A stretch of 64,000 nt of DNA from a bacterium (GCA_003576755.1 QEVT01000001.1:641-64640); one strand, 5' to 3'. Positions 22,627 through 50,914 are shown, counted from the first letter of the stretch. Translations and numbers: made by a program. Notes: generated by a model from the letters alone, not told the origin.

Positions 22627-22686
22627 CGGACCGTGGGCGGGGTCGTGTCCGCATCGGTGTCCGTTGAGCGAACAGGTGGTGTGGAG

Positions 22687-23223
22687 ATGAGGCATCCGAT
22701 GACACGGTTTTCAAGATACCGTGACGGGGTTCGGGCGGTGTGCCGCCGAGCCTGGGGGTCGGCCGCGCGATTCGGCGGCGATCGCCAGGGTGGCACCGCC
22801 GTGCAGGCGATCATGTTCCTGCCGGTCATCGCGGTGGCCATGTTCGGCCTGATCCGCGTGTGGCAGGTGATCCAGGTCCGCGACTCGCTGCACACCGGCA
22901 CGTACCTCGCCACGCGCTACATGTCGCTGTACACGCCGGAGACGTCGGATCCGGTGTTCTGGGAGGACATCGCTTACAAGTTCATCCTCGCCGAGCTCGA
23001 GGCCAACCCGTGGGTGGACAAGATGCGCCTCATCCCGGGCAGCCCGACGATCGGGGTGACGGTCGTGCTGACCGACGGCGGCTACGAGTGCACCAACGAC
23101 TTTACGGTCGAAGCCAAGTACACGATGAACGTCATGGGCGGCGATCCCGGCCAGAACGGCCTGCCCGGGCTGTCCGACATCACGCTCGTCGACCTTCGGA
23201 AGGGTGAGGTCCTGTGCAAATGA
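22687..23223 (+). CDS. tadE: TadE/TadG-like pseudopilin 1
   Basis: TadE-like N-terminus (GGTAVQAIMFLPVIAVAMFGLI). Start trimmed to MRHPMTRF. Confidence 0.6.
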   Translation: MRHPMTRFSRYRDGVRAVCRRAWGSAARFGGDRQGGTAVQAIMFLPVIAVAMFGLIRVWQVIQVRDSLHTGTYLATRYMSLYTPETSDPVFWEDIAYKFILAELEANPWVDKMRLIPGSPTIGVTVVLTDGGYECTNDFTVEAKYTMNVMGGDPGQNGLPGLSDITLVDLRKGEVLCK

Positions 23224-23942: not shown

Positions 23943-23955
23943 CGGCGAAGGAGGC

Positions 23956-24795
23956 ATGATGAACATGTGGCAGCGATGCAAGGCCGCCGGGCGGCACTGG
24001 ACGGCCGACTGGCACGACGACGAGCGCGGCACCTCGATGATCACCACCGTGGTCACCCTGCCGTTGTTCCTCGTCATCCTGCTCGGCATCTTCGGCCTGT
24101 TCCGGGTGCTGGCGGTCAAGTGGGTGATGAACCGCGGCGTCCAGGAGGCGGCACAGTACCTCAGCGAGGACGGACGTTACTGGGAGCTGAACCAGACGGT
24201 CGGGGGCACGGCGGGCGTCTCCAACACACTCCTGCCGGCCGACTACTACGACATCGAAGCCAGGCGCATCGTCATCAGCCGGTTGCGCGATGTCTTCAAC
24301 GATGACCAGATCTACAACTTCGTCACCGATACGCTCGTGGTCAACGTCACCGAGCCGATCCTGGCCGAGGTTCCCGGTGCCACGCCCGACCCCGACCGGA
24401 TCGAGATCGGCCAGATCGACGACATCTGCGACAAGCCGCGGATCTACAAGGCCGAGGAGCCCGGCGAGTTCCGCCACTGGAACAACATCCGTTTCCGGGT
24501 GTACGCCGAGCTCGAGATGCCGCTGCCGTGGATGCCGTTCATCCCGTTTACGACACAGATCACGCCGACGCTGAAGTTCCAGAATCGTGCCGTGGGCTAC
24601 GTGCAGTGCCCGCGCTGGAACGGGACACGCGAGGGCATGGAAATCGACAAGTCGAAGGAGCTGGCACGCGAGGGTCCGGGCCTCAAGTACCGCAACATGG
24701 CCACGCCGTGGTTCCCGACCGTCACGCCGCTGCCGGCGCCGACCAACCCGATCACACCGACCGTTACGGTGCCGACGATCACGCCGCCCCCGTAA
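23956..24795 (+). CDS. tadE: TadE/TadG-like pseudopilin 3
   Basis: AAGGAGG RBS. RGTSMITTVVTLPLFLVILLGIFGLF TadE-like N-terminus. C-terminal PT-rich tail. Confidence 0.6.
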   Translation: MMNMWQRCKAAGRHWTADWHDDERGTSMITTVVTLPLFLVILLGIFGLFRVLAVKWVMNRGVQEAAQYLSEDGRYWELNQTVGGTAGVSNTLLPADYYDIEARRIVISRLRDVFNDDQIYNFVTDTLVVNVTEPILAEVPGATPDPDRIEIGQIDDICDKPRIYKAEEPGEFRHWNNIRFRVYAELEMPLPWMPFIPFTTQITPTLKFQNRAVGYVQCPRWNGTREGMEIDKSKELAREGPGLKYRNMATPWFPTVTPLPAPTNPITPTVTVPTITPPP

Positions 24796-24882
24796 CGGGG
24801 ATGTACCGGCTGCTCTCGGCAGGTCGCTTCTGATGTCGCAGCCGGCCCTTTGCCGAGCGTGAGGCATGCTACTTCGCAGGGA

Positions 24883-30644: not shown

Positions 30645-31628
30645 TCAAACGGCCGGCGCGGGCACGAGACGTGCCGCGCCACCGGCGTGGTTGTGGAGCC
30701 ATGATTCGACATAATCGAGCTGGCGCAGGCAGCCCTCGACGTCGCCTGCCGCCGCCCCATCGCAGATCAGGTGGACGTTGGGACCGGCATCCAGTGTGAA
30801 CCACACCGGCAGGCCGGCGTCGCGCCACGCGTGGACCTGGTGAAGCAGGGCCACGGTCGCGGGCGCCCAGTAGAGCAGCGCCGGCCGGCCGGTCAGCGCG
30901 ATGGCGTGCAGCGCCAGTGCCTCGGCCTCGATGGCCGGGCCGAGCACCGCCATGTCGCGGTCGAGGATGGCCTGGCGCACCCGCGGCACCTCGGCCTGCA
31001 GCCCGGCGATGCGTGCCGCGAAGAACGGGCTGGCCAGCGCGGCGCCGTGGCCGTCGGTCGAGCCCGTGCGTTTGTGGTCTCGGCTGACCACGGCGACGAT
31101 GTCGCGCAGATCCCAATGTTCGGGCGGGGCGAACGATGCGGCGAACGAGGCCGCGTGGTCGCCGGCGGCGTGCCACTCGACAAAGCCGGGCGGCACCGAG
31201 CGCGCCGCCGATCCCGATCCTCGGCGCGCGAGCGCCGAGAGCTCCGGTTCCGGCAGCGACAGGCCGGCGGCTGCCGTCGCCGCCAGCGAGAGCGCGGCGA
31301 AGGCCGAGGCCGACGAGGCGATCCCCGTGCCCATGGGGAAGCTGTTGGACGACTCGACCGCCGCGTGGGTGCCGATGCCGGCCCGCGCACGGACGAGGTC
31401 GAGGTGGTGCGCCACACGATCGCGCGGCGCGCCAGCACGCGCCTCGCCGTCGATCACCACGTGGTCCGACGCCAGGCCAGGGTCGAACCGTACCGTCGTG
31501 GTGGTGGTGGCGGCGCTGAGGTTCATCGACAAGCTGCTGTTGAAGGGCAGCCGCAGGTCGGGGGACAGGTTGCCCCAGTATTTCACGAAGGCGATGTTCG
31601 CACACGCAACGGCGGTGGCAGAGGTCAT
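30645..31628 (-). CDS. Mevalonate (di)phosphate decarboxylase family (GHMP kinase fold), possibly a phosphomevalonate decarboxylase
   Basis: ANIAFVKYWGN N-terminal motif plus the GHMP motif PMGTGIASSAS. Confidence 0.8.
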   Translation of the reverse strand: MTSATAVACANIAFVKYWGNLSPDLRLPFNSSLSMNLSAATTTTTVRFDPGLASDHVVIDGEARAGAPRDRVAHHLDLVRARAGIGTHAAVESSNSFPMGTGIASSASAFAALSLAATAAAGLSLPEPELSALARRGSGSAARSVPPGFVEWHAAGDHAASFAASFAPPEHWDLRDIVAVVSRDHKRTGSTDGHGAALASPFFAARIAGLQAEVPRVRQAILDRDMAVLGPAIEAEALALHAIALTGRPALLYWAPATVALLHQVHAWRDAGLPVWFTLDAGPNVHLICDGAAAGDVEGCLRQLDYVESWLHNHAGGAARLVPAPAV

Positions 31629-31668
31629 GAGGCAAGACCGGCGCTGGTGACGGGCGGGACGGGCGCGG

Positions 31669-31926
31669 TCAACGGATGAGGCGGGCGACGAGCAGCAGCA
31701 CGACGGCGCCGATGAACGCCACGACGACGTCGCCCACCATGCCGGCGGGCGCGATCGCCAGGTTCAGCTGGCGCAACAGCCAGCCGCCGACGAACGAGCC
31801 GATGATGCCGGTGAGCACCGTGGCGAGCAGCCCGCCGCGGATGCCCCCGACGACGAGGTTGGCCAGCCAGCCGGCGACGGCGCCGATGATGATCCAGATC
31901 ACGATGGTCTCGACCGAGAGCGTCAT
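31669..31926 (-). CDS. GlsB/YeaQ/YmgE-family transglycosylase-associated membrane protein
   Basis: IIIGAVAGWLANLVVGG...GIIGSFVGGWL glycine-zipper helices. AAGGAG RBS. Confidence 0.7.
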   Translation of the reverse strand: MTLSVETIVIWIIIGAVAGWLANLVVGGIRGGLLATVLTGIIGSFVGGWLLRQLNLAIAPAGMVGDVVVAFIGAVVLLLVARLIR

Positions 31927-32129
31927 GGGAGGGCTCCTTTCGTGGGGTGCGTTGCGACGGGCACGCGACCACGGGGCCGGCATGCGGTCGCGTGCAGGCG
32001 CCGGGCGCCTCGTCTGCGCGGGGCACAGGCCCGCATGGGCTCAGTGTATCGCGGTGGGGCAGGATGGTCCAGTCGTGCGCGTCGTGCCGTGCGTGCGTCA
32101 CTCCGCGCGTGCCGCGCGAGCGGGCGGCG

Positions 32130-32936
32130 TCATGCGCGGATCGTCGTCCCGCCGGCGGCGCGGTCGCCGGCCAGCGCCGCGGCGACGGCGCCGGGCCGCA
32201 ACCCCGAGACGATGTGGACGACGAGCCCGGGATGACGTTGCACGGCGTCGAGCATCGCGCCGACCTTGGACGCCATGCCCCCGGTCACGTCGACCACACC
32301 GGCGCGGGCGCCCGAGAGGGCGGCGGCCAGGGCCTCGCGGTCGCGCGGCGTCACCTGGTCGAATCGGCGTGCGCCCGGGTGGGCATGGGGGTCGGCGTCG
32401 AACACGCCGTCGACGTCGGTGGCCAGCACGATGCGCGTGGGGCGGAGGGCATCGGCCAATGCGGCCAGGAGGGGCTCGGTGCTGACGATGGTGCCGCCTC
32501 GCGCGCGGTCGAGCGCGGCGTCGCCGTACGTCACCGGCACCAGGCGCGCCGCCAGACGCTCGGCGATCAGCGCGCCGCGGACGGCGACGACCCGGCCGGC
32601 GTCGCACGTGGCCACCAACCCGCCCGGCACGGCCACCGCCGGCAGGTCGGCGGCGATGAGGGCGTCGACGACGGCGGCGTTCAGGCGACCGGCGGCGGCG
32701 GCCACGCGCGCGAGCGCCATGGCGTCCGCGGGGCGGTCGAGGAAGCCGGTCTCTCGCGCCGCCACGTGCCCGAACGAGCCGCTGCCGTGAGCCACCACGA
32801 GCCGGCCGTCACGCGCGCCGGGCCATGCGGCCACCTCGCCCGCCAGGCGCACCAGCACCGCGCCGCGCACGGCCTCGTGCCCGTGCTTCTCGGTCAGGAG
32901 CGCGCCGCCGAGCTTCAGGAAGACGGTACCGGTCAC
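32130..32936 (-). CDS. Isopentenyl phosphate kinase (amino-acid kinase family)
   Basis: VFLKLGGALLT...VVAHGSGSFGH motifs. Start placed at the GTG 17 nt after the mvk stop; the start is uncertain. Confidence 0.7.
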   Translation of the reverse strand: MTGTVFLKLGGALLTEKHGHEAVRGAVLVRLAGEVAAWPGARDGRLVVAHGSGSFGHVAARETGFLDRPADAMALARVAAAAGRLNAAVVDALIAADLPAVAVPGGLVATCDAGRVVAVRGALIAERLAARLVPVTYGDAALDRARGGTIVSTEPLLAALADALRPTRIVLATDVDGVFDADPHAHPGARRFDQVTPRDREALAAALSGARAGVVDVTGGMASKVGAMLDAVQRHPGLVVHIVSGLRPGAVAAALAGDRAAGGTTIRA

Positions 32937-32955
32937 GCCCGTGGTCCCGCCGTCG

Positions 32956-33927
32956 TCAGCGATCGTCAGCCACGCGCCAGACGGCGGCTGCGTCGGCTTG
33001 GCGCAGCGCAGACGTGACCGCAGCCTCGGTTCCCGGCGCTGCGAGCGCGACGACGACGCCACCGCCGCCCGCGCCGCTGAGCTTGGCCCCAAAGGCGCCC
33101 GCCCCTCGCGCGGCGCCGACGAGCGCGTCGAGGCGCGGCGTCGAAACCCCCATCGCCTGGAGCACGAGGTGGTTCTGGTTCATCAGCCAGCCCACACGGT
33201 GGAGCGATCCCTCGGCGAGCGCTGCCACGGCTTCGTCGACGAGCTTGCCGATGCGGCGGAACCAGTCGTCGTACACGTCGGGATGGGCCTGTCGCCGGGC
33301 GCGCACGCCCGCCACGACCTCGCGGGTGAGGCCAGCCGTGCCGGAATCGGCGGCCAGCACGCACCACGGGGCCCCGAAGCCGATCGGCGTCGCGCGACCC
33401 TGCTGGAAGCGGATGGGCCGACCGAATGCGATGACGGTGTTGTCGATGCCGCTGGGGGTGCCGTGCGCGTGCTTCTCGGCCACATAGGCCAGCGATGCCA
33501 CGGTCGCGTCGTCCCAATCCTCGCCGGCGGCCTCGCCGATCGCCCGGACGAGCGCCACCGCCACCGCGGCGCTCGAGCCCATTCCCCGGCCGGTCGGGAT
33601 GCTGCTGGTGACCTCGACGTGCCACGGCGTGCGCGGGGTGCGCCCAGCGTGCTCGAGCGCCGCGCGCGCCGCCGCGGCCAGGGGGCTGTCGGCCGGCGCC
33701 GAGGCGACGTCGATCTCGAGCGGCGGCCGCTGGTCGGCGGGCGGGTGGTGCGCGGTGATCGACAGCGGCCCGCCCGATGGGAACACCGTGGCGCGCGCGC
33801 CGACGGCGTGGCACGCCACGGCGATCGCCGGATGGCCGTACACCACCGCGTGCTCGCCCAGCAAGATGAGCTTGCCGGGCGCGGTTGCCGTGGCGAGGGG
33901 GGCCGGGTCGGTGTCGTGGGCGGCCAC
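32956..33927 (-). CDS. mvk: Mevalonate kinase (GHMP)
   Basis: APGKLILLGEHAVVYG and GMGSSAAVAVALV GHMP motifs. Confidence 0.85.
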   Translation of the reverse strand: MAAHDTDPAPLATATAPGKLILLGEHAVVYGHPAIAVACHAVGARATVFPSGGPLSITAHHPPADQRPPLEIDVASAPADSPLAAAARAALEHAGRTPRTPWHVEVTSSIPTGRGMGSSAAVAVALVRAIGEAAGEDWDDATVASLAYVAEKHAHGTPSGIDNTVIAFGRPIRFQQGRATPIGFGAPWCVLAADSGTAGLTREVVAGVRARRQAHPDVYDDWFRRIGKLVDEAVAALAEGSLHRVGWLMNQNHLVLQAMGVSTPRLDALVGAARGAGAFGAKLSGAGGGGVVVALAAPGTEAAVTSALRQADAAAVWRVADDR

Positions 33928-39014: not shown

Positions 39015-41564
39015 GTGATGCAAACGGGCGATCCGCGCTGGCGGCCCTACCTGCCCCTGACGCTCTTGGTGTTCGTCGTGGTCGTGCTCGGCCTCGCCGC
39101 CCAAGGCGGTGCGCCGGTTCACGCCCAGGCCTGCCCGCCGTATTGCCAGACCCCCGTCATCACGCCGGCCTGGCACCTGCACATGTGCGACGAGCCCTAT
39201 CAGGAGCAGCTCGACGACAACCACTGCATGCGCGGGCCGGGTGTCACCGAGTTCCCGGCCGGCACCAGCCGGGTCTACATCATCTACTGCCACCAGCTGT
39301 CCGACACCGTCGTCGTGCAGGTCAAGGATTCCGGCGGGGGGCTGCAGTTCGTCAACCACCCCGACGGCATCACGTACAGTGGGAACGGCTGCGAGACGCT
39401 GATCTACCAGCACCCCAACCAGATCCCGCCGGCCGGAAGCCCGTACTACACGTCGGCGTGGTGGCCGGAGGGCCCGTTCACCGGCGTCGGGGCCGGCATC
39501 GAGTGGTACATCGGCCTGTTCCTGGCCTTCGACCACGAGACGTACTACGGCAACAGCGCCGAGGCCTATCTGACGGCACGCGATCCCGCCGCGAACGCGG
39601 ACCCGACGGTCCGCGAGGTCATCACCGTGCAGGTCTCGAGCACGAGTGACCCGACCGGCATCGCCATGGCGCTCCGCGAGCAGTCGCCGGGGTCGAGCGT
39701 GTTCAAGTCCGACACGCCGCTGCGCTTCTCGCAGTTCGCGTCCAACGCGGCGCAGGGCGTGATCCGGGTGGCCAACCGCGACGTCATCACGGCCCGCTAC
39801 TGCCCGCGGAGCTGCACCACGCCGTACGTCGACACCGCCACGTGGTACCAGCTAGAGGTGACCATCACGCCCACGCCGCTGCCGACGTGGGAGGGTCCGC
39901 CCCCCACGCCGACCAACACGCCGCCGCCGGACCTGCCCGTGCAGTACATGACGCTCCGCCCGGCGCCTGCGGACGTGGGCTATGCCCCTCAGATCGGCTC
40001 GAACAAGGACCGCCCCAACCATCTCGGATACCCCACGATCTACGCCGGCATGTGGACGCACGGCCGCAACCTGCACCACGGCATGGTGCAGTTCGACCTG
40101 TCGGATCTGCCGCCGGGCGCCATCGTCCGCGAGGGGCGCCTCGACCTCGTGGGGCGCGAGAGCCGATACACCAAGCCGGGCGCATGGGCCATCCAGCTCC
40201 TCGACGCCAGCATCGACGCCGGCTGGCGCGACGCGTCGTACGAGCGCGTCCACAGCACCACGGTGCTCGAGCGGCTCGAACCGGTGCTGCAGGACCACGA
40301 CCTCGGCGTGGGTCGGCGCAACAGCTTCGGCTTGTCGGCCGCTGCGGTCGGCCACCTCAACGCGCGCCTGGCCACCACGCGCCGCGCGAGCTTCCGGGCC
40401 GACGGCCCGGCCGGCGAGGACAACAACCTGTTCGCCTGGGAGTCGGGCGTCGACGTGTACAACCGCGCGACCGAGCCTCCCGATCCGGCGCTCGGCCCGG
40501 CGCTGCACCTGGCGTACGTGGTGGTGCCCGAGACGACTCCGACACCGCTCGCGACGACCCCCCTCGCGTCGCCGGGCACGACCGCGAGCGCCACGCCGAC
40601 GGCGCCGACTCCGATCCTGCCGACCGCCGGCGCGAGCACCTCGCCGACGGCCACGCGCACCCCGACGGTCGGCGCTTCGGGCACTCCCGCGGCGCCGCCC
40701 ACCCCCGGCCCCGGCACGCCGTCGGCCTCGCCGACGCCGGCATCCACCGCTGCCGTGGTGGCCACGCCGACGGCGACCGGCCCCGCCAACCAGCGGCAGG
40801 TGTGCGTGGTGGCGTTCGACGACCGCGACGGGGATGGCCGGCTCGGGCCCGGCGAGCGTTTCCTGGCAGGCGTGACGTTGCGGTTGACGCATGTCCGCAC
40901 CGGCGTGTTCGACAGCTGGACGACCGACGGCGCGAACGACCCCGACTATTGCTGGAACGGTCTCATCGACGGGCCGTACACGTTGAAGGCCGTCTCGCTG
41001 CCGCGTGGCCATGTCGGAAGCGGCGTGCTCGAGCACGCGTTCGAGGTGCCGTTCCCCGGCGCCCCGGCCCGCTACACCTTCGGTGCCCGGCGCCCCGAGG
41101 TGCCGACGCCGACGCCGACGCCGATGCCGACGCGTCCGCCCACCCCTACGCCGTCGCCGACCCTGTCGCCGACACCGTCGCCCGAGCCGACCGTGGACGG
41201 GCCGAGCGGCGAGATCTGCCTGGGGGTGTTCGACGACCGCAATCACGACGGCGCGCGGGCAGCGGGCGAGCCGTGGCTCGAGGGCATGCGGGTGCGCGTG
41301 CTGGCCGAGGACCGCCAGGAGGTGCGGGTGCTGGCCTCGCGCTCGGATGGGCCGCGGTGCACGCGCCTGGCGGCCGGCGTCTACTACGCGGGGATCGCTG
41401 CGCCCGAAGGATGGATCGTGATCACGCCCCGCGAGGAAGCGGTGCTCCTCACCGACGGCGTGCGCCGGACCGTGGTGTTCGGGGTGTACCGCCCGGGCGG
41501 CGTGTGGCGTGCCTTCATGCCGTGGGCTCGCCGCGACGTCCTCCGCCCGCGCGGTGGCCGATAG
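39015..41564 (+). CDS. Secreted multi-domain protein (signal peptide, PT-rich linkers, two SdrD-B/carboxypeptidase-regulatory-like domains, one copy of an unassigned 'QFDL...LPxGA' module)
   Basis: N-terminal TM/signal. VCVVAFDDRDGDGRLGPGE and CLGVFDDRNHDGARAAGE Ca-binding-like repeats. The module VQFDLSDLPPGAIV is shared with the S8 protease at 47183-50914. Confidence 0.6.
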   Translation: MMQTGDPRWRPYLPLTLLVFVVVVLGLAAQGGAPVHAQACPPYCQTPVITPAWHLHMCDEPYQEQLDDNHCMRGPGVTEFPAGTSRVYIIYCHQLSDTVVVQVKDSGGGLQFVNHPDGITYSGNGCETLIYQHPNQIPPAGSPYYTSAWWPEGPFTGVGAGIEWYIGLFLAFDHETYYGNSAEAYLTARDPAANADPTVREVITVQVSSTSDPTGIAMALREQSPGSSVFKSDTPLRFSQFASNAAQGVIRVANRDVITARYCPRSCTTPYVDTATWYQLEVTITPTPLPTWEGPPPTPTNTPPPDLPVQYMTLRPAPADVGYAPQIGSNKDRPNHLGYPTIYAGMWTHGRNLHHGMVQFDLSDLPPGAIVREGRLDLVGRESRYTKPGAWAIQLLDASIDAGWRDASYERVHSTTVLERLEPVLQDHDLGVGRRNSFGLSAAAVGHLNARLATTRRASFRADGPAGEDNNLFAWESGVDVYNRATEPPDPALGPALHLAYVVVPETTPTPLATTPLASPGTTASATPTAPTPILPTAGASTSPTATRTPTVGASGTPAAPPTPGPGTPSASPTPASTAAVVATPTATGPANQRQVCVVAFDDRDGDGRLGPGERFLAGVTLRLTHVRTGVFDSWTTDGANDPDYCWNGLIDGPYTLKAVSLPRGHVGSGVLEHAFEVPFPGAPARYTFGARRPEVPTPTPTPMPTRPPTPTPSPTLSPTPSPEPTVDGPSGEICLGVFDDRNHDGARAAGEPWLEGMRVRVLAEDRQEVRVLASRSDGPRCTRLAAGVYYAGIAAPEGWIVITPREEAVLLTDGVRRTVVFGVYRPGGVWRAFMPWARRDVLRPRGGR

Positions 41565-41743
41565 CCGTGCGCCTCGGTGTCCGGGGCACCTCGCGAGCGG
41601 GCGGCCGATGGTCCCCACCAGGCCGATGTGCTATGCTCTTGGACTCGATGCGCAACCCTACCGCGGGCGATCGCCGGGTTGGCTCCGCCCGCCGCCGTGC
41701 CCCAGCCGCCTACCGTAAGCCCGCTTGCAGGAGGTAGACCCGC

Positions 41744-42589
41744 ATGAAGTCGCTTCGCATCGCGTTGCTCGCCCTCGGGTTGACGCTGACGTGCCAGCCC
41801 GCCGCGGCCCGCCCCGGGGCAGGCCCCGACGACGAGAAGGTCCGCATCTCCGACCTTCGCCTGGCGCGCACGCCCGACGCGGCCCAGGGCAGCGTGATCT
41901 TCCCGGAAGACACCCGCGAGCTCTTTGTCAGCTTCGCGTATGCCGGCGGCACCAGCGAGCCCGTGACGTTCATCGTCATCGGCCCGGGCGGCGTCGAGGC
42001 CGCCCGCTTGACCGGCCGTTACCGCGGCGACGGCACGGCCACCCTCAAGATCAGCGGTGCCGACATGCTCCGTCGGCTGTCGCAGGCGCTCGACGAGGCC
42101 GTGCGTGCCGGACAGGCCAACGCGCGCGACGCCGCGGCGCAAGCCGTCGGCCCGCGCGAGTACCTTCTGACGACCCAGTACCACGTGCACCGCGCCATCC
42201 AGACCCTTGACCTTCTGAACCACGCCCAGCTCGGACCCGACCTCGACCCACCGCTGCGCCTTGTCGGCGATCGGTTGTCGGTGCTCTCCGCCTTGGTGGG
42301 CGATGCCCTGCGTCTGCCGCCCGACGAGATCCAGGCGATGCGCGCCGCCGCCCAGAAGATGTCCGCACCGTTCGCGCAGGCCGTCGGCGCGTCGGGCAGC
42401 GTGGTCACCGGAGCCACGCCGGTCAAGGATGCGGTGCTGCCCAGCACGGGCACCGATGCTCGCCGTGCCTACACCCTGAACGTCGAGATCAGCGGCGACC
42501 CGTCGAACAGCCTGGAGTTTTGGGTGCAGCGCACCACCAAGCTCTACCTGCCCAACACCCGCCTGCGTCACGTCGAGCCCGGCCGCTGA
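41744..42589 (+). CDS. Secreted hypothetical protein, paralog family member A
   Basis: GGAGG RBS and a signal peptide. The N-terminal domain motifs (DLRL..., FVSFAYAGG, GDGTAT) are shared with the next three genes. Confidence 0.5.
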   Translation: MKSLRIALLALGLTLTCQPAAARPGAGPDDEKVRISDLRLARTPDAAQGSVIFPEDTRELFVSFAYAGGTSEPVTFIVIGPGGVEAARLTGRYRGDGTATLKISGADMLRRLSQALDEAVRAGQANARDAAAQAVGPREYLLTTQYHVHRAIQTLDLLNHAQLGPDLDPPLRLVGDRLSVLSALVGDALRLPPDEIQAMRAAAQKMSAPFAQAVGASGSVVTGATPVKDAVLPSTGTDARRAYTLNVEISGDPSNSLEFWVQRTTKLYLPNTRLRHVEPGR

Positions 42590-42930
42590 GCCCTTGAGCC
42601 GTGATCGTCCATTTGGCCTTCGGCGCTCGCACGCCTAACATTGAGCGACCGACACGGCCTCGCACCACGGCGCTCACCAACGGTGCGGGGCCGTTGCTTG
42701 GGCCGGGCTCCGCGCCAAGGGGCGGCGCCTGCTCACAGCCACCTAAGCCGCCTTTCATCCGAAGCTTAGCTGGAACCTCGAAACTGCCACCGACGACGGC
42801 GCGCGCCATGCCCCGGAGCGCGCCGCGCGGCCGCCACAGCGGCCAGGCCGGCTCACCGGCACCGCCCGTTCCGGCGCTGGCCTTCCATGGCCCCGCCCGG
42901 CGCCGTGGCCGAGAGTCCAGGGAGGAGGGA

Positions 42931-43575
42931 ATGTTCAGCATGAAGACGCATCGGCCGCTCGCCGCCGTGGCGCTGGCCGTCGCCGTGATCGCCATGTGGG
43001 TGCCTCGGCCCGCCGCCGGCCAGGCCACCGTAGCCGACCTTCGTCTGGTGGCCGACGCGAGCGGCACGCCGATCGAACCCGCGCCGGCGCCACCCGGCGA
43101 GAAGCTCTACCACTTCGACACCGGCGTCGACAAGATCCACGTGGCCTTCGACATCGACGGCGCCGAGCCCACCGAGGTCGAGATCCGCATCACCGGCCTC
43201 ATGGGCGCGATCCTGTACCAGGAACCGTTCTCGTACGACAGCCCCGGCACCAAGATCGTGACCTTCGACAACAAGGGTGTGGCGCTCGAGGACAACGAGT
43301 ACGTCGTCAACGCGTATGTCGGCGCCGATCGTTACCTCGCCGACAGCCTCCAGCTCACCATCGGTCAGGCGGTGATCCCGACGTCGCAAGTCGGCGCCCA
43401 GGCGCCGTCCGTGCCCACGCCGCAGGCGACGCTGGGGGCCACCAGCGGCCCGACGACGGGTTCCGCAGGCACGGGCCCGCTGTCCGGATGGACGCTCGTG
43501 GCGGCCGTCGCCGGGATGCTGGCGCTCTTCGGCGTGGTGGTCTGGGCCGGCTGGTCGGCGATGAGGCGCGGGTGA
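42931..43575 (+). CDS. Secreted hypothetical protein, paralog B, with C-terminal TM anchor
   Basis: GGAGGAGG RBS, a signal peptide, ADLRLV...KLYHFDTG, and a C-terminal hydrophobic helix plus an RRG tail. Confidence 0.5.
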   Translation: MFSMKTHRPLAAVALAVAVIAMWVPRPAAGQATVADLRLVADASGTPIEPAPAPPGEKLYHFDTGVDKIHVAFDIDGAEPTEVEIRITGLMGAILYQEPFSYDSPGTKIVTFDNKGVALEDNEYVVNAYVGADRYLADSLQLTIGQAVIPTSQVGAQAPSVPTPQATLGATSGPTTGSAGTGPLSGWTLVAAVAGMLALFGVVVWAGWSAMRRG

Positions 43576-43604
43576 GGCCCGCCCGTGAAGGAGGACTGCT
43601 AGCC

Positions 43605-44921
43605 ATGCACAAGCCCGCGTTCACCGTTGCTGCCGCCGCGGCCGCCATATGGCTGGCCGGAGCCACCTCGGCGCAGGCGCTCGCCAAGGTCGACCAGGTG
43701 CGTGCCAGCCTCACCGAAGGCGCGTCCGACGCGTTCCCGTTCCCGGTCGGCGGCACGGCGTCGATTCCGAGCGGATCCGAGAAGCTGTACGTCACCTTCG
43801 ACTACACGGCGGCGGCGCGCGACGACATCGGCGTCGAGATGAAGTCCGGGGGTCTCCTGGTCTTCCGATCGACCAAGCGCTACACCGGCAGCGGCACGGC
43901 AACCGTGGAGGTGACGGGGCTGGCGGTGTTCCAGGAGTTGACCGACCAGATCGCCGACTACGCCGACGCCTGCCAGGACAACATCGACAACGCGCGCAAG
44001 AGCGGCAACCGCGAGTACGTGCAGAACACCATCGGGCTCGTCAACTCCATTCGGACGGCGCTTCAAATCGTGGACCGTGCGGGCCTGGGCGGCGATTTCA
44101 AGACCAGCCGCGACAGCTTGGATGCCGCGCTCGGCAAGCTCGAAGACCTGTCCAACGACCTGCCCGGCGGCGCCAACACCGATGCCATCAAGGCGTTGGC
44201 GGCTCAGATGGAGCCTTATGTGGCCCAGGCCTCGGAGGCCGCCATCAGCCTGGACAAGGCGGGCCAGTCGGCCACGGCGGTCGCCCTGCCGGACACCGGC
44301 ACCGACCGTGGTGCCGCGTGGACCATCAACGTGACCGTCGGCGGCTCGCCGGCCTACTCCGGCGAGCTGTGGATCACCAGCCAGGCAGTCGCCCAGCCGT
44401 CGGCGACGGTTGCCAGCGGCGCCACCGCCGTCCCCGGCCAGGCCACCCGCACCAGCGCGCCTGCCGCTGGCAACGCCCCCACGGCCACGCCAGCGCCGGG
44501 AGCCACCGCGGCGGGTGGGCGCAACCCGTCGTCCGACCAGGGCCGGACCGCTTCTTCGGGGAGCGCCGCGACGTCGGCGGCGGGTCGGGCGACCGCCCCG
44601 GCCGGCGGTGCGGGGACCGGCTTCGCGACCCTCGACCAGCCCTCCGCCCCCGCGGCCGCCATCGAGCCGACGGTGCCATCGGTGTCGGACGCGCCCACCG
44701 GGGGCGACGAACCGGCCGCGTCGACGCTGGAGGCACCCGCGCCCGTCGCCACGTGGACGCTGCCGGCGGGCGCCGCTGCCGCGGGAGACACGCGCCCGGC
44801 GGCGCCGACGGACGAGGACACGCCGGTGGCGCCGGGCGGCGCCGGCCCCAGCCTCGCCGTGCTCGGCCTCGGCGTGATGGCCTTGATGGCCATCGGGCTC
44901 TGGCTGCGCCGACGGATGTGA
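43605..44921 (+). CDS. Secreted hypothetical protein, paralog C, with low-complexity Ala/Thr/Pro region and C-terminal TM anchor
   Basis: GAAGGAGG RBS, a signal peptide, KLYVTFDY...GSGTATVEV, and a C-terminal LAVLGLGVMALMAIGLWLRRRM. Confidence 0.5.
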   Translation: MHKPAFTVAAAAAAIWLAGATSAQALAKVDQVRASLTEGASDAFPFPVGGTASIPSGSEKLYVTFDYTAAARDDIGVEMKSGGLLVFRSTKRYTGSGTATVEVTGLAVFQELTDQIADYADACQDNIDNARKSGNREYVQNTIGLVNSIRTALQIVDRAGLGGDFKTSRDSLDAALGKLEDLSNDLPGGANTDAIKALAAQMEPYVAQASEAAISLDKAGQSATAVALPDTGTDRGAAWTINVTVGGSPAYSGELWITSQAVAQPSATVASGATAVPGQATRTSAPAAGNAPTATPAPGATAAGGRNPSSDQGRTASSGSAATSAAGRATAPAGGAGTGFATLDQPSAPAAAIEPTVPSVSDAPTGGDEPAASTLEAPAPVATWTLPAGAAAAGDTRPAAPTDEDTPVAPGGAGPSLAVLGLGVMALMAIGLWLRRRM

Positions 44922-45135
44922 TGTCGGCGCCCCTGCCGGCCGTCGCGGCAGCGATGGCGGGCAGGCGGTCCGCGGCGGCGCCGGCATCGACGTGCCGGCG
45001 GCCCCGCGTCTCGAACGTCGGTCGCAGCCATCGCGCCGCGCGATGGCTGCGAATGGCCCCGCTCGGCCTGCTTTCTGCGGCGACCTTCAGCCTGCACACC
45101 TGACACGACCCATGCAAACCAGTAAGGAGTCTTCC

Positions 45136-46971
45136 ATGCACCGCCTCTCCCCTGCCCTCGTGGCGGCACTGGCGCTGACGACGGCGCTGGCCGGCATGTC
45201 GTGGGCCTCGCGCGCCGCTGCATCGGCGCCGGCTCCCGGCACGGACGGCACGGCCCAGCAGACCAGCCTCGAGGTCTTCATGAGCGACGCCGCGGACGGT
45301 CCGCGCCGGCACAGCTTCGCCAGCACCACCGGCAGTGTCTTCGCCGTGGTGGCGCACACCAATGCCGCCGGCGAGCGTTACCGGATTCGCATCCGAGACC
45401 TGTCGGGCATCACCGTCAAGGTCCACGACACCGACGCCTTGCGCGGGGACGGGCGCGCCACCGTCAGTGTCGGCGCCGCCGACTTCGTGGCGAGCTACAA
45501 GGGTGCGGTGGCCACGGCCGGCACCTTGCTTCGCGAGAACGGCACCAAGCTCACCGCCAAGTGCGCCAGCATCCCCTCGGGCAGCGAGTTCGAGGAATGG
45601 CGCAAGGACATGCTCAGCACGGTGGAGTCGTCGCGCACGGCCACGACCGAGGTGACCAAGACGCTGCAGGCGGTGTTGGTGATGCCGGACGCGGGGGCGA
45701 TCGAGGGCATCCAAGCGGCCGTCGGTCAGTCGAGCGCCACGTTGGGCGAGGGCCATGCCAAGCTTGGCGACGCCAAGCTGAAGCTCCAGCCGGCCACGGG
45801 CCGACCGGACGCGCCAGCCGCGTGCACGCTGCTCGGCGAGGCCAACGCCAAGACGATCGCCGGGCTCGACCAGGGCGATTCGGCCCTCGCCCTGTTGCCG
45901 GCCGACACGTCCGGCTGGCGGCTGCCCAAGACACAGGCGATCTACAACGGCACGCAGTTCCGCTTCTGCACGCAGTACACGACCGACATCGCGGCGATCA
46001 AGAACAACCAGGCGGGCGACACCGCCGCGTCGAGCTCGTGGTCGGTCGGCGATGCCGGACCGCCGGCGCTGATGTTCCAGAGCCCGCGCGACGTCGGCGA
46101 GGCTGGCAAGCTTCGCCTCAGCTACGATGGTGACGCCGACGCCATGTATGCCCAGACGGTCACGGTGCCCGGTGTGAACCGCTCGGCGAGCGTGACGGCC
46201 TTCGTCACCGATGCGCAGTGCATCCCTGTCGACGGGGTCGACGTCACGTTAAGCGTCGAGCCCTCGACGGCGGGGTCGGTGACGCCCGCCCGGGTCACCG
46301 CGTCCGACGGCGTGGTGCAGGCGACCGTCGCCAGCGGCAACGAGGCCGCGCTGGCCAAGGTCAATGCCGTGGTGTGCGTCGGGCCGTGCGGCGAGGGCGG
46401 CAACGACGTCAAGGGCAGCGCGTCGTTCGACGTGATCGGCACCACGAAGAACCCGGACCTCAAGATCATCCCGCATACTCGGCTCAACCCGCTCAGCAGC
46501 GTCGTCGCCTACCGCAAGGGCATGATCTCGGCGTTCCCGAAGGACGCGTTCAGCCGATCGGTGGCGCCGGGCACGACCATGGTGGTGCGGATTCAGTCCG
46601 GCCCTGGTGAGCTGGCGTACAACCGCACGCGCATCGTGAACGGGCGCCCGGTCGGCGACGAGCAGGTCATCGTCTTGGGCAAGAAGGCCGACCTCTTGGT
46701 CATGGACAACGGCACGACGCGCATCCCGCCGGGCGAGCCGGGGTACAGCTACGGCAACCTCTACCTCCAGAAGGGCAGCGACGGCGAGGGCAAGCTGGTG
46801 TTGTCGGCCGAGGCGGACGGTGTCTCCCAGACACTCGAGTACGAGATCGCCAGCCGGATGTCGATCTACCTTCCGATCGCTGCCAAGTCGTACGACATCC
46901 GCATCCCTTTACCCACGCCGACCCGTCGGCCGCCGCTGCCGACTGAGACGCCCGGCGCTCAGTCGCGATAG
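45136..46971 (+). CDS. Secreted hypothetical protein, paralog D, with Ig-like (Big) region
   Basis: AAGGAG RBS and a signal peptide. RIRIRDLSG...GDGRATVSV N-terminal domain and a later Big-like beta region. Confidence 0.5.
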   Translation: MHRLSPALVAALALTTALAGMSWASRAAASAPAPGTDGTAQQTSLEVFMSDAADGPRRHSFASTTGSVFAVVAHTNAAGERYRIRIRDLSGITVKVHDTDALRGDGRATVSVGAADFVASYKGAVATAGTLLRENGTKLTAKCASIPSGSEFEEWRKDMLSTVESSRTATTEVTKTLQAVLVMPDAGAIEGIQAAVGQSSATLGEGHAKLGDAKLKLQPATGRPDAPAACTLLGEANAKTIAGLDQGDSALALLPADTSGWRLPKTQAIYNGTQFRFCTQYTTDIAAIKNNQAGDTAASSSWSVGDAGPPALMFQSPRDVGEAGKLRLSYDGDADAMYAQTVTVPGVNRSASVTAFVTDAQCIPVDGVDVTLSVEPSTAGSVTPARVTASDGVVQATVASGNEAALAKVNAVVCVGPCGEGGNDVKGSASFDVIGTTKNPDLKIIPHTRLNPLSSVVAYRKGMISAFPKDAFSRSVAPGTTMVVRIQSGPGELAYNRTRIVNGRPVGDEQVIVLGKKADLLVMDNGTTRIPPGEPGYSYGNLYLQKGSDGEGKLVLSAEADGVSQTLEYEIASRMSIYLPIAAKSYDIRIPLPTPTRRPPLPTETPGAQSR

Positions 46972-47061
46972 TCGGCGCCCCTCACGGGTCCTGGGGGTGC
47001 GGCGGCCCGCCGCCGCATCCCCTCTCCGCCGGGGCAACCCGGACCGCTTCACTCAAGTGCA

Positions 47062-47099
47062 CAGCGCCCCCGGGCCGGTCCTCCGGCCCGGGGGCGCTG
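47062..47099. terminator. Bidirectional terminator hairpin (17-bp perfect stem, loop TCCT) between convergent genes
   Basis: cagcgcccccgggccgg-tcct-ccggcccgggggcgctg read directly. It sits between the 45136..46971 (+) stop and the 47183..50914 (-) stop. Confidence 0.6.
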
Positions 47100-47182
47100 T
47101 CGTCACTGCGCGTGTGCGCGAGGATCGCCGGAGGGTGGTCCGCGTCGCCGTCCCCACGCGCCCGCGCCGGGCGCGGATGCGC

Positions 47183-50100
47183 CTACGGCGCCGCGGCTGC
47201 CAGGTCCACCGTCCAGTAGTGGCCGAGCGGCGAGCCCGGCGCGTGGTCGTAGAACGCCCCGATGTGCGTCATCTGCCGGCTCAGGATGCGGTCGCGGTGC
47301 GCCGCCGAGCCCATCCAGGCGGCCACGACCAGCTCGGCGCTGCCGCTGTTGCCGGCGATGAGCTGTTCGACGGCCGAGGCCCGGAAGCCCGCGCGCGCCA
47401 CGCGCTCGGCCGGCGTGGAGCCGTCGCTGCCGATGTGGTCGAAGAAGCGGTGTGACGTCATGTCCCAAGTGTGCTGTTCGGCCGCGCGGCGGAGCGCTGC
47501 GCTCAGGGCCAGGCCCGGCAGCCCTGCCTTGGCCCGCTCGGCGTTGATGCCGTCGACGATGGCCTGGATGCGCTGCTCGTCGGTGGGCACGTTCGGCAGC
47601 GGCTGGTCGCTGCGCGGCGGGCCGTAGACGATCGACAGGCGGGGTGGCGTGCCGCTGGGACCGGCGTCCCAGCTGAAGATGTTGCTCGGCCCCACGCGCG
47701 GCCCGTCGAAACGGAAGCTGACCTTGCCCGTCGTGGCAGCCCGCCACTCGACCTCGCGCACCTCGCTCTCGCGCAGGGCGAACACGTTGGCCCGACCGGC
47801 GTCGAGGTCGCTCTGTCGCAGCACCGGCAGGAGCGTGGCCAGCTCGTCGGCGTCCGAGATGCGGTCGAAGCCGTGGAGCTGCCACCCTGGATCGACGTCG
47901 GCGGCGAGCAGGCGGATCTCCCACTGGCCGTTCCCGTACGGCGACAGCCGTTCGGCATAGTTGCCGGTGAGGATCAGGTGGACTTCCTGGATGCTTGCCC
48001 CGGGCGGGACCGCCGAGAGGTCGAACTGCGTCATGCCGTGGTACACCGTGCGTTGGTAGACGCCGGTGTAGGTGTTGGGGTCGCCGAGGTGGTTGCCGAC
48101 CTCGAACTGCCGGACCCAGCCGGTGTCGGACGGCAGCGCCGGGATGTCGATGGCGTTGAAGCCCGGCGTGGGCGGCGTGACGAGCGGCGGGATCAGGGTC
48201 GCCGTCGGCAGGGCGGTGGGCAGCGGCGGGGGCGCCGTGGCCGTGGCCGTCGGCGGCGGGCTGGTCTCGGTGGGGGTGGGCGACGGGCCCGCGGTGGGCG
48301 GCAGCGGTGTGGCGCTGGGCGGGAGCGGCTCCGTCGCGGTCGCGGTCGGCACGGCCTGCGGCGTGCCGATGGTGTAGTTGATCCAGAGCTCCGGCGCGAG
48401 GTCGATCTGGCTGTCCGGCCCGTAGCCGGTGTGCCACGAGGCCAAGTTGGCGAAGTCGCCCCCCGTGGGGCCGTCCATGCGCAGCGAAAGACGCCGCGAG
48501 CCGGCCAGGCGCGCTTGCAGCACGGCCAGCTGCGACGGGCTCAGGCTGAACACGTTGCGCACCCCGTTGTCGATGTCGTCGGCGTTGAGCAGCGGCAAGA
48601 GCTTGGCATCCACGACGGCGCCGTGGATCCGCGGGTAGGCGTGGGCCTCGAAGCCGGCGTCGACATCGGTCTCGAGCACGTTGACCGACCACGTGCCAAG
48701 CTTGTTGACACGGTCGGAGGGCTGGCCGGTCAGGGTAAGGCGCGCGAAGTGGATGTACGCGCCGGCCGGCAGCTCCCCGAGGTCGAACTGCATGGCGCCG
48801 TGGTAGTACCGGTCGTTCCACGTGCCGGTGTAGGTGTACGAGCTGTCGAAGTGGTTGCCGGTGGGCTCGCTGCTCACGACCCAGCCGATGCGATTGCGCG
48901 CCGGCCGGAGGACGACGTCGACGTGGCCCGGGATCGACGTCGGGATGGCCGTGGGCGGCGGCGGGGTCGGGCTCGCCGCGGGCTTGGTGGGGGTGGGCGT
49001 GCCCGATGGTCGGGGTGGGAGCGTCGGCGACGGGGCCGTGACCCGCGCCGAGCCGAAGTTCACCGCCCAGTAGAAGCGGTAGCCGTCGCTGGTGGTGCGG
49101 CAGCCGGCCCCCACCTCGGTGCAGCGCGGGCACAGGATGATGGCACGGTGCCCGGCGCTGTTCATCCAGGCCTGGACGGCGGCATCCGGTGAGGTCTGCC
49201 CGCAGGCCACGATCTCGCCGTACGGCGAGGCGTAGCCCTGCTCGGTCATGCGGTCGAACGGGTCGCTGCCGTTGGACCCGGTGTGCGTGCAGCGGCGCAT
49301 GATCGCCATGTCGAGGGCGTGGCCGTCGGCGGCGCGGCGCAGCGCCGGGTTGCTGGCCAGTGGGCCGAGGTTGAAGTTCGCCCGCTGACGGTTGATCAGC
49401 CCCTCTACCTGGGCGCTGCAGTCGCCGTTGGGCGGCGGCACCGCCGACGGTGGAGGCGTCGGGGCACCCGGCGTGGCGGTGGACCCGACCGGATTGGGAT
49501 CGGACGTCGCAACCGGCGTCCCCGGGCCGCCGCAGGGGTTCGTCTGCAGCGCAAGGGCCTTGCCGGCGTTGATGCGGCCGGCGCCGAAGTACTGGTCGGG
49601 CCCGCGCGTGCCGATGTCGTCGGCGGTTTGCTCGAGGATCTCCTCGACCTGCTTGGGGGTGCGGCATGGCCCCTGGGCCATCAGCAGGCCGGCCACGCCG
49701 GCCACCACCGGCGACGCCATGCTCGTGCCGCTCCACGCCTGGTAGCTGCCGCCGCGCACGGTCGAGAGGATGCCGACGCCGGGGGCCGCGACGTCGACGT
49801 ACGACCCGTAGTTCGAGAAGCTGGCGCGGGTGTCGGACTGCGTGGTCGCCGCCACGCCGACGACGCCGGTGTACGAGGCCGGGTACGTCGGGTTCGAGGT
49901 CGACTCGTTGCCGGCGGCCGCGATCACCGGCACGTTGCGCCCGATGGCGTAGGCGACCGCGTCCTGCAGCGCGCGCGACGTGAAGAAGCCGCCGAGGCTC
50001 ATGTTGATCACGTCGGCCTCGTGGTCGGCGGCCCAGACGACGGCGTTGCCGATCGCGGCAAGGCCCCCGTTGCCCGAAGACCCGAGGGCCTTGACCGGCA

Positions 50101-50914
50101 TGATCCTGGCGTTCCAGCCCGTCGCGGCACCGCCGATGGCGTTGTTGGTCAGCGAGGCCGCGATCCCCGCGACGTGGGTGCCGTGCCCGTGATCGTCGCG
50201 GGGGTCGGGGTCGTTGTTGAAGTGGTCGTAGCCGGCGACGCACTTGCCGCGGAGGTCCGGATGGTCGCAATCCACGCCGGTGTCGATGATGGCGATCGTG
50301 ACCCCGTCGCCGTGACTGAAGTCCCACGCTCGGCTGCTGTCGATCTTGGCATGGTGCCACTGCTGGGCATACAGCGGGTCGTTGGGCACTTCCTGCGGGC
50401 CGGCGGGCCCGTCGCCGCGTGGGCCCGCCGCCTCGGAAGGCGCGATCGGCGGCCCGTCCGGCCAGCCGAACACCGACGCCAGGTAGTCCGGTTCGGCGTA
50501 CCGCACCACCTTCTCGTTGGCGTACACGTTGGCCATCGCCAGCGCGTCCGCCGAGAGCTTGAGGACCTGCACGCCGATCTGCGGGATCTCCCGGATGACC
50601 TGGGCACCGTACTGCTCGTGCAGTGCCTGCTTCACCGAGTCGCTGACGCCGGGCTCAAACCGCACGATGAGGTGATCCGGGATGTAGCCCGGATCGGCCG
50701 GCGGGGTGGGGTCGTCGTCGCGTCGAGCCGCAGACGGGTCGGCCGGTGGGATCCCCAAGGGCGCCGGCGGCACGACCCACGGTCCGGGCAAGGGGGCTGC
50801 GGGGCCTGTCGGCGGCTCTTGGCCGTGCACCTGGCCCGGCAGCGGCCGACCCATCGGCATTCCCAGGCCGACCAACATGCTTGCGACGACGACGACTTTC
50901 CGGCACATTATCAT
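47183..50914 (-). CDS. Secreted subtilisin-like S8 peptidase fused to two CAP/SCP(PR-1-like) domains and two copies of the 'QFDL...LPxGA' module
   Basis: Catalytic triad motifs DTGVDCDHPDL, HGTHVAG and GTSMASP. Two CAP-like segments (...MNSAGHRAIIL... and ...WMGSAAHRDRIL...). PT-rich linkers. Start trimmed to MIMCRK, with an AAGGGGG RBS. Confidence 0.8.
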   Translation of the reverse strand: MIMCRKVVVVASMLVGLGMPMGRPLPGQVHGQEPPTGPAAPLPGPWVVPPAPLGIPPADPSAARRDDDPTPPADPGYIPDHLIVRFEPGVSDSVKQALHEQYGAQVIREIPQIGVQVLKLSADALAMANVYANEKVVRYAEPDYLASVFGWPDGPPIAPSEAAGPRGDGPAGPQEVPNDPLYAQQWHHAKIDSSRAWDFSHGDGVTIAIIDTGVDCDHPDLRGKCVAGYDHFNNDPDPRDDHGHGTHVAGIAASLTNNAIGGAATGWNARIMPVKALGSSGNGGLAAIGNAVVWAADHEADVINMSLGGFFTSRALQDAVAYAIGRNVPVIAAAGNESTSNPTYPASYTGVVGVAATTQSDTRASFSNYGSYVDVAAPGVGILSTVRGGSYQAWSGTSMASPVVAGVAGLLMAQGPCRTPKQVEEILEQTADDIGTRGPDQYFGAGRINAGKALALQTNPCGGPGTPVATSDPNPVGSTATPGAPTPPPSAVPPPNGDCSAQVEGLINRQRANFNLGPLASNPALRRAADGHALDMAIMRRCTHTGSNGSDPFDRMTEQGYASPYGEIVACGQTSPDAAVQAWMNSAGHRAIILCPRCTEVGAGCRTTSDGYRFYWAVNFGSARVTAPSPTLPPRPSGTPTPTKPAASPTPPPPTAIPTSIPGHVDVVLRPARNRIGWVVSSEPTGNHFDSSYTYTGTWNDRYYHGAMQFDLGELPAGAYIHFARLTLTGQPSDRVNKLGTWSVNVLETDVDAGFEAHAYPRIHGAVVDAKLLPLLNADDIDNGVRNVFSLSPSQLAVLQARLAGSRRLSLRMDGPTGGDFANLASWHTGYGPDSQIDLAPELWINYTIGTPQAVPTATATEPLPPSATPLPPTAGPSPTPTETSPPPTATATAPPPLPTALPTATLIPPLVTPPTPGFNAIDIPALPSDTGWVRQFEVGNHLGDPNTYTGVYQRTVYHGMTQFDLSAVPPGASIQEVHLILTGNYAERLSPYGNGQWEIRLLAADVDPGWQLHGFDRISDADELATLLPVLRQSDLDAGRANVFALRESEVREVEWRAATTGKVSFRFDGPRVGPSNIFSWDAGPSGTPPRLSIVYGPPRSDQPLPNVPTDEQRIQAIVDGINAERAKAGLPGLALSAALRRAAEQHTWDMTSHRFFDHIGSDGSTPAERVARAGFRASAVEQLIAGNSGSAELVVAAWMGSAAHRDRILSRQMTHIGAFYDHAPGSPLGHYWTVDLAAAAP

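Follow-up and report, generated by a model that had tools for sequence, protein, structure and literature searches.

Five consecutive genes in a 64,000-nucleotide (nt) stretch of bacterial DNA (GCA_003576755.1, QEVT01000001.1:641-64640; G+C 72%), the whole of which we call the window and from whose first letter all positions are counted, are shown here, by comparison between lineages, to form a conserved operon of the filamentous Chloroflexota (Anaerolineae, Caldilineae and Ardenticatenia). The operon, BIG-G1-G2-G3-G4 (39015-46971), encodes predicted Sec-exported paralogs, all on one immunoglobulin (Ig)-like sandwich; BIG is our name for the 849-amino-acid (aa) protein at 39015-41564, and G1 to G4 are the four genes of 41744-46971. 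We suggest, tentatively and at somewhat less than an even chance, that this array encodes a surface assembly of several subunits, anchored in the membrane, which may belong to the unidentified protein layer seen on filamentous Chloroflexota. Counted in support of such an assembly are the intactness of the genes, the shared fold, the division of the proteins into C-terminal classes, the kept gene order, purifying selection and the presence of domains of surface type.

The secreted BIG is the first gene of the array, and G1 (41744-42589, 281 aa), G2 (42931-43575, 214 aa), G3 (43605-44921, 438 aa) and G4 (45136-46971, 611 aa) follow it on the same (plus) strand. Each of G1-G4 has a GGAGG-like ribosome-binding site (RBS) 5-10 nt 5′ of its start and encodes an N-terminal signal peptide of the Sec type (K/R, a hydrophobic stretch, then an AxA-type end), and the same four products appear in public gene calls (contig JAJTXP010000001.1 of the metagenome-assembled genome (MAG) GCA_021463285.1). 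The in-frame G+C content at third codon positions is 0.86-0.89 for G1, G2 and G4. An earlier model-generated reading of the window, made without database searches (the sequence-only reading), had described four consecutive, co-directional genes with strong RBSs and signal peptides; its coordinates are exact and all four genes are intact. The true start of G2 may be the ATG at 42940, because it is there that G2 orthologs begin.

In pairwise BLASTP among G1-G4, G1 and G3 alone match significantly (30% identity over 214 aa, E 1e-20), and the lack of a significant direct match between G2 or G4 and the other paralogs could be taken as a sign that a single ancestral gene has decayed into pseudogenised pieces, or that the motifs are alike by chance. 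We give that explanation practically no credence, as both the profile scores, set against decoys, and the profile-profile alignments reach significance. Word-indexed homolog searches returned just 2-6 relatives per gene, and the family emerged when the G1/G3 core served as the profile for an exhaustive search, which found 104 cluster representatives at E ≤ 1e-3 and 82 at E ≤ 1e-10. A hidden Markov model (HMM) rebuilt from 110 family domains scores G4 (aa 51-135) at 35.0 bits (E 1.3e-9) and G2 (aa 58-113) at 22.0 bits (E 1.1e-5), the top score among 2000 shuffled decoys being 10 bits, and with G2 and G4 as BLASTP queries many family members were matched in register (E 1e-9 to 1e-4). Profile-profile alignment with hhalign, the kind of check that the sequence-only reading had proposed, was run with ortholog families drawn from other lineages; the G2 family aligns with the G1/G3 family at a probability of 96.5% (E 9e-10, 58 columns) and the G4 family at 97.6% (E 3.6e-12, 218 columns), and for all four proteins the probabilities span 96.5-99%. 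These results confirm, at the level of sequence comparison, that G1-G4 share a predicted N-terminal eight-strand beta-sandwich and are real paralogs, as that reading had held; the motifs on which it had relied, DLRL, KLYVTFDY and G(D/S)GTATV, correspond, in the predicted fold, to sandwich strands A, C and F.

The four-gene array itself was genuine in all its genes, but it had been drawn too short at its 5′ end. The family HMM also matches the N-terminal region of BIG in the window (E 1e-4) and of BIG orthologs in four other loci (L013, L017, L018 and L020), and the BIG family aligns with the G1/G3 family by hhalign (probability 89.8%, E 1.8e-6). By these comparisons BIG is the fifth member, and the array begins upstream at 39015.

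The fold predicted for G1 shows how the members are related in architecture. The AlphaFold2 (AF2) model of G1, made from a 74-sequence alignment, has a mean predicted local distance difference test score (pLDDT) of 90.5 and a predicted template modelling score of 0.83, and places six strands at aa 34-104, a five-helix bundle at 105-224, two strands at 243-262 and then a low-confidence tail. Because the order is strands, helices, strands, the helices read as an insertion into an eight-strand sandwich. In G1 the signal peptide (aa 1-22) precedes this module (aa ~31-262), which is followed by LYLPNTR at aa 267-273 (nt 42542-42562). The AF2 model of G4, made from six sequences, has a pLDDT of 70.5 overall and 72-93 in the module, and shows strands at aa 44-113, helices at 114-251, strands at 268-313, an Ig-like domain at 350-445 and a further beta domain at 462-571. 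Thus, by the models and alignments, a module of ~240 aa, consisting of the sandwich and an inserted helical bundle, is shared by G1, G3 and G4, and G2 is predicted to be the bare sandwich, with eight strand-like segments and a 9-residue loop at the position of the bundle (ortholog alignment). The helical region, which the sequence-only reading had counted among the divergent C-terminal parts, is therefore better described as an insert within the module common to these three proteins.

In the array, G4 runs from its signal peptide through the module (aa ~44-313, nt 45265-46074), a Big_1-like Ig domain (aa ~350-445, nt 46183-46470) and a second beta domain (aa ~462-571, nt 46519-46848) to IYLPIAAK (aa 577-584, nt 46864-46887) and a Pro-rich end. 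G2 consists of a signal peptide, the bare sandwich (aa ~31-148, nt 43021-43374), a short Pro/Thr/Gly linker, a transmembrane (TM) helix (aa ~187-208, nt 43489-43554) and a conserved tail, SAMRRG, predicted to be cytoplasmic; G3 of a signal peptide, the module (aa ~26-262, nt 43680-44390), a stalk (nt 44391-44840), a TM helix (nt 44853-44906) and the end RRRM. Besides its signal anchor and CPPYC motif, BIG has the sandwich at approximately aa 77-130 of the open reading frame (ORF; nt ~39237-39398), two SdrD_B domains and a DNRLRE-like domain, with Pro/Thr linkers, and it ends in AFMPWARR. Two observations on cysteines may be added: the CPPYC motif of BIG lies just past the signal peptide (~39130) and occurs also in L020, and orthologs of G4 have four invariant cysteines (C143, C230, C278 and C362), which likely form disulfides.

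The helical bundles, of four or five helices and ~120-140 aa in each of G1, G3 and G4, bring to mind a quite different kind of protein. Tripartite alpha-pore-forming toxins are typically encoded by operons whose products are secreted paralogs with long helical bundles, and the array could on that pattern encode a multi-component secreted toxin or membrane-active system in which the inserts of G1, G3 and G4 act in the manner of the Hbl, Nhe or Ahl components. This is highly improbable: Foldseek with the G1 model against the PDB gave no ClyA/Hbl/Nhe-type match at E ≤ 1e-3 and none among the 50 matches listed, G3 appears to be anchored in the membrane of its own producer, and the synteny with housekeeping genes (ClpB and GH3) across orders, together with the low ratio of nonsynonymous to synonymous substitution (dN/dS) given below, is unlike that of mobile or fast-evolving toxin loci. 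We have rejected the pore-forming toxin for its want of a fold match and for this synteny.

The C-termini of the paralogs fall into two classes. By their sequence, G2 and G3 look like type-I proteins of the cytoplasmic membrane, each with a predicted C-terminal TM helix and a basic tail, as the sequence-only reading had said of two of the four proteins. The G2-type tail, LWAG[WR]SAM[RK]R[GS], is kept across orders; G3-type proteins end in G-P-N/S-L-A-V-L-G-x-G ... W-L-R-R-R-M/V (anchor consensus GP..A.LG.G..L.A..WLRRR in the ortholog alignment), the TM helix of G3 in the window beginning GPSLAVLGLG. Chloroflexota of this group are regarded as monoderm. Between module and anchor, G3 has a stalk of ~150 residues, rich in small residues and in Thr and Pro (A43 P21 T20 G19 S13), whose predicted length would be enough to span the wall. 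The stalk has an invariant TWT motif, and the stalks of G3-type proteins hold short invariant islands (R-A/M-T and P..(V/A)(P/A)TWT); their conservation suggests binding or modification sites and not a pure spacer.

BIG, G1 and G4 are without such an anchor, and in every lineage examined they end, a few residues past the last strand, in a hydrophobic-[YFW]-[LMI]-P-x3-4-[KR] peptide (the YLP peptide), whose forms in the window are the AFMPWARR of BIG, the LYLPNTR of G1 and the IYLPIAAK of G4. So the view that two of the proteins are anchored holds for G2 and G3, but G1 and G4 are not simply unanchored. C-terminal class strictly follows gene position in all lineages examined. A TM helix and a basic tail are present in 48 (median 438 aa) of the 104 G1/G3 family representatives, and [YF]LP stands 7-16 residues before the end in 32 (median 281 aa), the remainder being fragments or degenerate variants. 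When the window and ten loci were translated in six frames, giving 594 ORFs of at least 150 aa, the terminal YLP motif was confined to array proteins. In the G1 model it is a disordered tail (block-mean pLDDT 56-75). A G1 ortholog in the Anaerolineales MAG L016 (3-674) has two tandem terminal peptides (AIFLPTAMLR ... AIYLPSARLR). Literature searches returned nothing relevant for the YLP motif and nothing specific on Chloroflexi sorting signals.

Such ends raise the question of whether a dedicated system, like those of sortase, exosortase or rhombosortase, might sort or process the array proteins at their C-termini; the TM tails of G2 and G3, the YLP tails of BIG, G1 and G4, or both, would then be cleaved and the proteins linked covalently to wall or lipid. 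The sequence before and within the TM helix, with its basic cluster, is unusually conserved in G3 (GPNLAVLGxG ... WLRRRM/V) and G2 (LWAG[WR]SAMRR[GS]), in the way of known sorting signals; the YLP peptide stands at a fixed distance from the end of G1-type proteins; and an LPXTG-like [LI]P.[TS]G motif is kept within the module, in 48 of the 85 aligned members, its Pro being nearly invariant. We nevertheless consider such processing distinctly unlikely. The NCBIfam sorting-signal models have no match in G1-G4 at E ≤ 1, no sortase, exosortase or rhomboid gene was found among the scanned neighbours (the window and the related loci), and the YLP tail lacks a hydrophobic helix. The LPXTG-like motif (LPSTG in G1, aa 232-236, 42437-42451; LPDTG in G3, aa 228-232, 44286-44300) is internal: it comes after the bundle, in a segment with a block-mean pLDDT of 94-97, and what follows it is the last two strands, not a TM helix. 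The C-terminus is 45 aa away in G1 and ~206 aa away in G3, whereas an LPXTG sorting signal stands within ~35-40 residues of the end and runs straight on into a hydrophobic helix and a positively charged tail. On this ground, and for the lack of a TM helix in G1 and G4, an LPXTG sortase substrate was rejected, as was membership of the PEP-CTERM, GlyGly-CTERM or PGF-CTERM class, since no NCBIfam model matches and GPNLAVLG and LWAGWSAMRRG belong to no known class, even though the form of motif, TM helix and RRR is present in G3 and G2.

The gene order BIG-(G1)-G2-G3-G4 is kept in about ten lineages, so the array does recur in relatives of the window. Its carriers are two close relatives (L008 and L009), MAGs named Ardenticatenia (L013), Anaerolineales (L016 and L017), Caldilineae (L018) and Anaerolineae (L020), and metagenome contigs (L022-L026). 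G1 is the variable member, present in the window, L008/9, L016, L022, L023 and L024, and absent from L013-type loci, L017 and L018. One further contig, L007 (ENA contig_60279), appears chimeric, with unrelated low-G+C sequence joined at ~9.9 kb to the high-G+C array and its G3-like gene cut at the 5′ end, and was not used for G1 or G2. The surrounding order, ClpB (minus strand), array, S8/CAP protease (minus strand) and GH3, is kept in L023, in L024 up to the end of the contig, and partially in L016 and L018; L013-type loci have different flanks. Across orders, identity is 73-79% for ClpB, 56-70% for BIG (~468 aa), 38-52% for G2, 31-47% for G4 and 23-34% for G3, and because their cross-order identities are lower, G1-G4 evolve faster than their neighbours.

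This is not the rapid divergence that the sequence-only reading had supposed. Against L009 (~80-88% identical), dN/dS is 0.18 for G1, 0.15 for G2, 0.21 for G3 and 0.16 for G4, beside 0.09 for the protease and 0.13 for GH3; within G3 the core gives 0.08-0.13 and the stalk, the one relaxed part, 0.35-0.5. Gene-wide diversifying selection, for which that reading had proposed to look, is rejected at these values (0.15-0.21). Since every paralog can be matched to orthologs of its own in different orders, the duplications are ancient, and by these measures G1-G4 are ancient functional paralogs under purifying selection. The same values, the in-frame third-position composition, and the finding that full-length orthologs of all four genes occur in many lineages, each with its own RBS, signal peptide and stop codon, argue further against pseudogenised fragments; neither of the faults that the earlier reading had foreseen, non-significant motifs or decayed pieces of one gene, is found.

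Pfam and NCBIfam scans of G1-G4 found nothing above threshold, and neither the G1/G3 and G2 profiles nor G4 and BIG found a relative in sequence searches of the PDB. A Foldseek search of the G1 model against 350,542 PDB chains gave no match at E ≤ 1e-3; its weak matches were to ~80-residue Ig-like or carbohydrate-binding-module-like sandwiches and to generic four-helix bundles. Domains of surface type do occur in the array. G4 matches Big_1 (PF02369) at 22.3 bits (E 1.4e-4), below the Pfam cut-off of 34.9, and a G4-like relative, P0096, matches Big_1 (59.2 bits) and Invasin_D3 (62 bits) above threshold, another (P0105) falling below it; from these scores the Ig domain of G4 is probably a divergent member of Big_1. 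SdrD_B (PF17210) is matched by BIG, and not by G1-G4, in two stretches and at 41.6 bits against a cut-off of 29.7. The model of G4 aligns with the Ig strings of the surface-layer (S-layer) proteins Sap and SbsC, of intimin and of complement/A2M MG domains (Foldseek E down to 2e-7). Three BIG homologs, in the window (~39520-39930, BIG aa ~170-305), L017 and L018, match the same 135-aa part of the model for Kustd1514, an anammox S-layer glycoprotein (NF052345, model positions ~1171-1304 of 1596; E 4.5e-4, 1.8e-3 and 1.6e-6).

On these data a role at the surface or in the envelope is the most economical reading, and to that extent the sequence-only proposal of a surface-layer or adhesin family stands, with the Big_1-type Ig domain of G4 and its relatives and the SdrD_B of BIG in its favour. 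In the mechanism that we propose, the five proteins would together build a single surface structure associated with the envelope and held to the membrane by G2 and G3; unanchored BIG (with its SdrD_B domains), G4 (with its Ig-like domains) and G1 would form its exposed part, and the YLP peptide would serve as a signal for attachment or assembly. The structure might perhaps belong to the lattice-like protein layer of such filaments. Weak pointers to a surface layer are the adhesin- or S-layer-like types of domain, the local match to Kustd1514 and the layer of Litorilinea aerophila. Around the filaments of this member of the class Caldilineae, electron cryotomography has shown a lattice-like putative protein layer whose components are unidentified (PMC13319060), and S-layers are reported in other filamentous Chloroflexota (PMC7332563).

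Several points weigh against such an assembly. Its co-assembly step is drawn solely from operon conservation and the shared fold, and every family member found stems from MAGs or metagenomes. The structural matches of G4 are to generic Ig strings, with TM-scores below 0.25, and the Kustd1514 matches reach 16-26 bits where the family cut-off is 1400. In the array proteins, finally, the Pfam scan recognised neither an SLH domain nor any other domain that binds the wall or belongs to S-layers.

An unlikely alternative, though one with evidence of its own, is that the proteins are independent adhesins or polymer binders, without any common structure, which present substrates to the neighbouring protease and GH3 enzyme. 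The protease is an S8 subtilase with two CAP domains, encoded on the minus strand at 47183-50854 (Pfam Peptidase_S8 1e-56, CAP 4e-34, Fervidolysin_NPro-like 1.6e-16), and is the convergent neighbour of the array in seven lineages (the window, L007, L008/9, L016, L018, L023 and L024). It has two copies of a DNRLRE-like domain (NCBIfam DNRLRE_dom, a weak match at 6.6e-6), with ~165 aa at 31-37% identity to BIG proteins, so that BIG and protease share a domain; and adhesins often carry domains of the Ig-like, SdrD_B and Big_1 kinds. However, protease and GH3 are absent beside the array in the Ardenticatenia-type loci (L013/14/15, L020, L025 and L026), where there is a metallo-beta-lactamase-fold gene instead, and the Pfam and NCBIfam scans revealed no recognisable carbohydrate- or peptide-binding module in G1-G4. 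The GH3 gene product matches the N-terminal domain of Pfam Glyco_hydro_3 alone, and its ORF ends in hydrophobic stretches; it looks NagZ-like, of the wall-recycling type, rather than a secreted polymer-degrading enzyme. Independent binders would also give no reason why the gene order is fixed or why the C-terminal classes complement each other. Substrate capture, which the sequence-only reading had suggested from the nearby protease/hydrolase block, is thus not supported, protease adjacency being a trait of one large subclade.

The proposed surface assembly may be compared with four kinds of known system. In the SlaA/SlaB layer of the Sulfolobales, and among archaeal S-layer glycoproteins, a TM-anchored stalk subunit with beta-sandwich domains stands alongside unanchored subunits that make the exposed layer. 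The array resembles them in having a predicted TM-anchored stalk subunit with a beta-sandwich beside unanchored subunits, in Thr/Pro-rich segments like glycosylated stalks, and in genes that are co-transcribed neighbours. It differs in showing no sequence or fold match to them, in its five paralogs with one shared domain and in belonging to a bacterium with peptidoglycan.

Among bacterial multi-Ig surface proteins, the nearest likenesses are to the Bacillus S-layer proteins Sap and SbsC and to intimin/invasin, in that the G4 model aligns as an Ig string (Sap, SbsC, intimin D0-D1) and Big_1/Invasin_D3 is above threshold in G4-like relatives, and to the SdrD-type CNA-B/SdrD_B adhesins, through the SdrD_B of BIG. 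Unlike those proteins, the array has no SLH, LysM, beta-barrel or LPXTG anchoring, the low TM-scores and the sub-threshold Big_1 score of G4 set it apart, and its sandwich with a helical insert has no PDB counterpart at E ≤ 1e-3. In its alternative ends on one module, one of them tripartite (motif, TM helix, Arg cluster), the array is like the 'choice-of-anchor' families and sorting signals; it is unlike PEP-CTERM, GlyGly-CTERM, PGF-CTERM and LPXTG in matching no signal model, and the YLP end has neither a TM helix nor a described counterpart.

The fourth comparison is with pili. Type V (FimA/Mfa) and chaperone-usher pili are encoded by operons of paralogous beta-sandwich subunits that assemble by strand donation. 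By analogy, the array too is an operon of paralogs on one sandwich, with anchor subunits, a short strand-like terminal peptide and, in many lineages, a secreted protease next door. No homology to these pili was detected, however, the predicted G1 sandwich is complete in the monomer with its eight strands, and a donor-acceptor contact is hypothetical in the array. A bolder version of the surface assembly would be a new surface polymer or lattice, independent of sortase and SLH, in which the YLP peptide of BIG, G1 or G4 docks on the N-terminal sandwich or helical insert of another subunit and the resulting head-to-tail chains end at the membrane-anchored, tail-less G2 and G3, perhaps with the S8-CAP protease as a maturation factor, the product being the layer of the Anaerolineae and Caldilineae; we regard this as improbable.

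Activated sludge, sediments and hot springs are rich in filamentous Chloroflexota, whose envelope is atypical and debated. An operon with two predicted membrane-anchored and three unanchored paralogs is a concrete candidate for the layer of the Caldilineae filaments, and its two alternative C-terminal signals may point to an unfamiliar mechanism of attachment. The module of sandwich and inserted helical bundle, and the YLP peptide, appear to be undescribed; Ig-like surface proteins with C-terminal anchors are a familiar kind. With ~100 clusters at 50% identity, the family merits definition even if it does not form the Chloroflexota layer.

Of the non-coding features near the array, a perfect inverted repeat of 18 bp with a 4-nt loop (47061-47100; 100% complementary in a repeat search) lies between the convergent G4 and S8-CAP genes and is likely a bidirectional terminator marking the end of the array. 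The 214-nt spacer between G3 and G4 holds a perfect inverted repeat of 15 nt whose arms are 1 nt apart (45022-45052) and a 22-nt imperfect hairpin (44925-44972); their role may be attenuation or internal termination. Rfam and promoter/terminator scans of 38-48 kb gave nothing informative.

Elsewhere in the window, a Tad/Flp pilus locus at ~16200-24800 encodes an RcpC/CpaB-like protein, a T2SSE ATPase, an A24 prepilin peptidase and a TadE-like protein; Tad pili are also reported on Litorilinea aerophila (PMC13319060). On the minus strand at 9570-15816 are two STAND NTPase genes, encoding proteins of 454 aa (nSTAND2 and Trans_reg_C) and 1617 aa (nSTAND1/NACHT, HEAT repeats and a second AAA domain), and at 30645-33927, also on the minus strand, genes of the mevalonate pathway (a diphosphomevalonate decarboxylase-like gene and a GHMP kinase) stand beside an E1 dehydrogenase/transketolase-like gene and ClpB.

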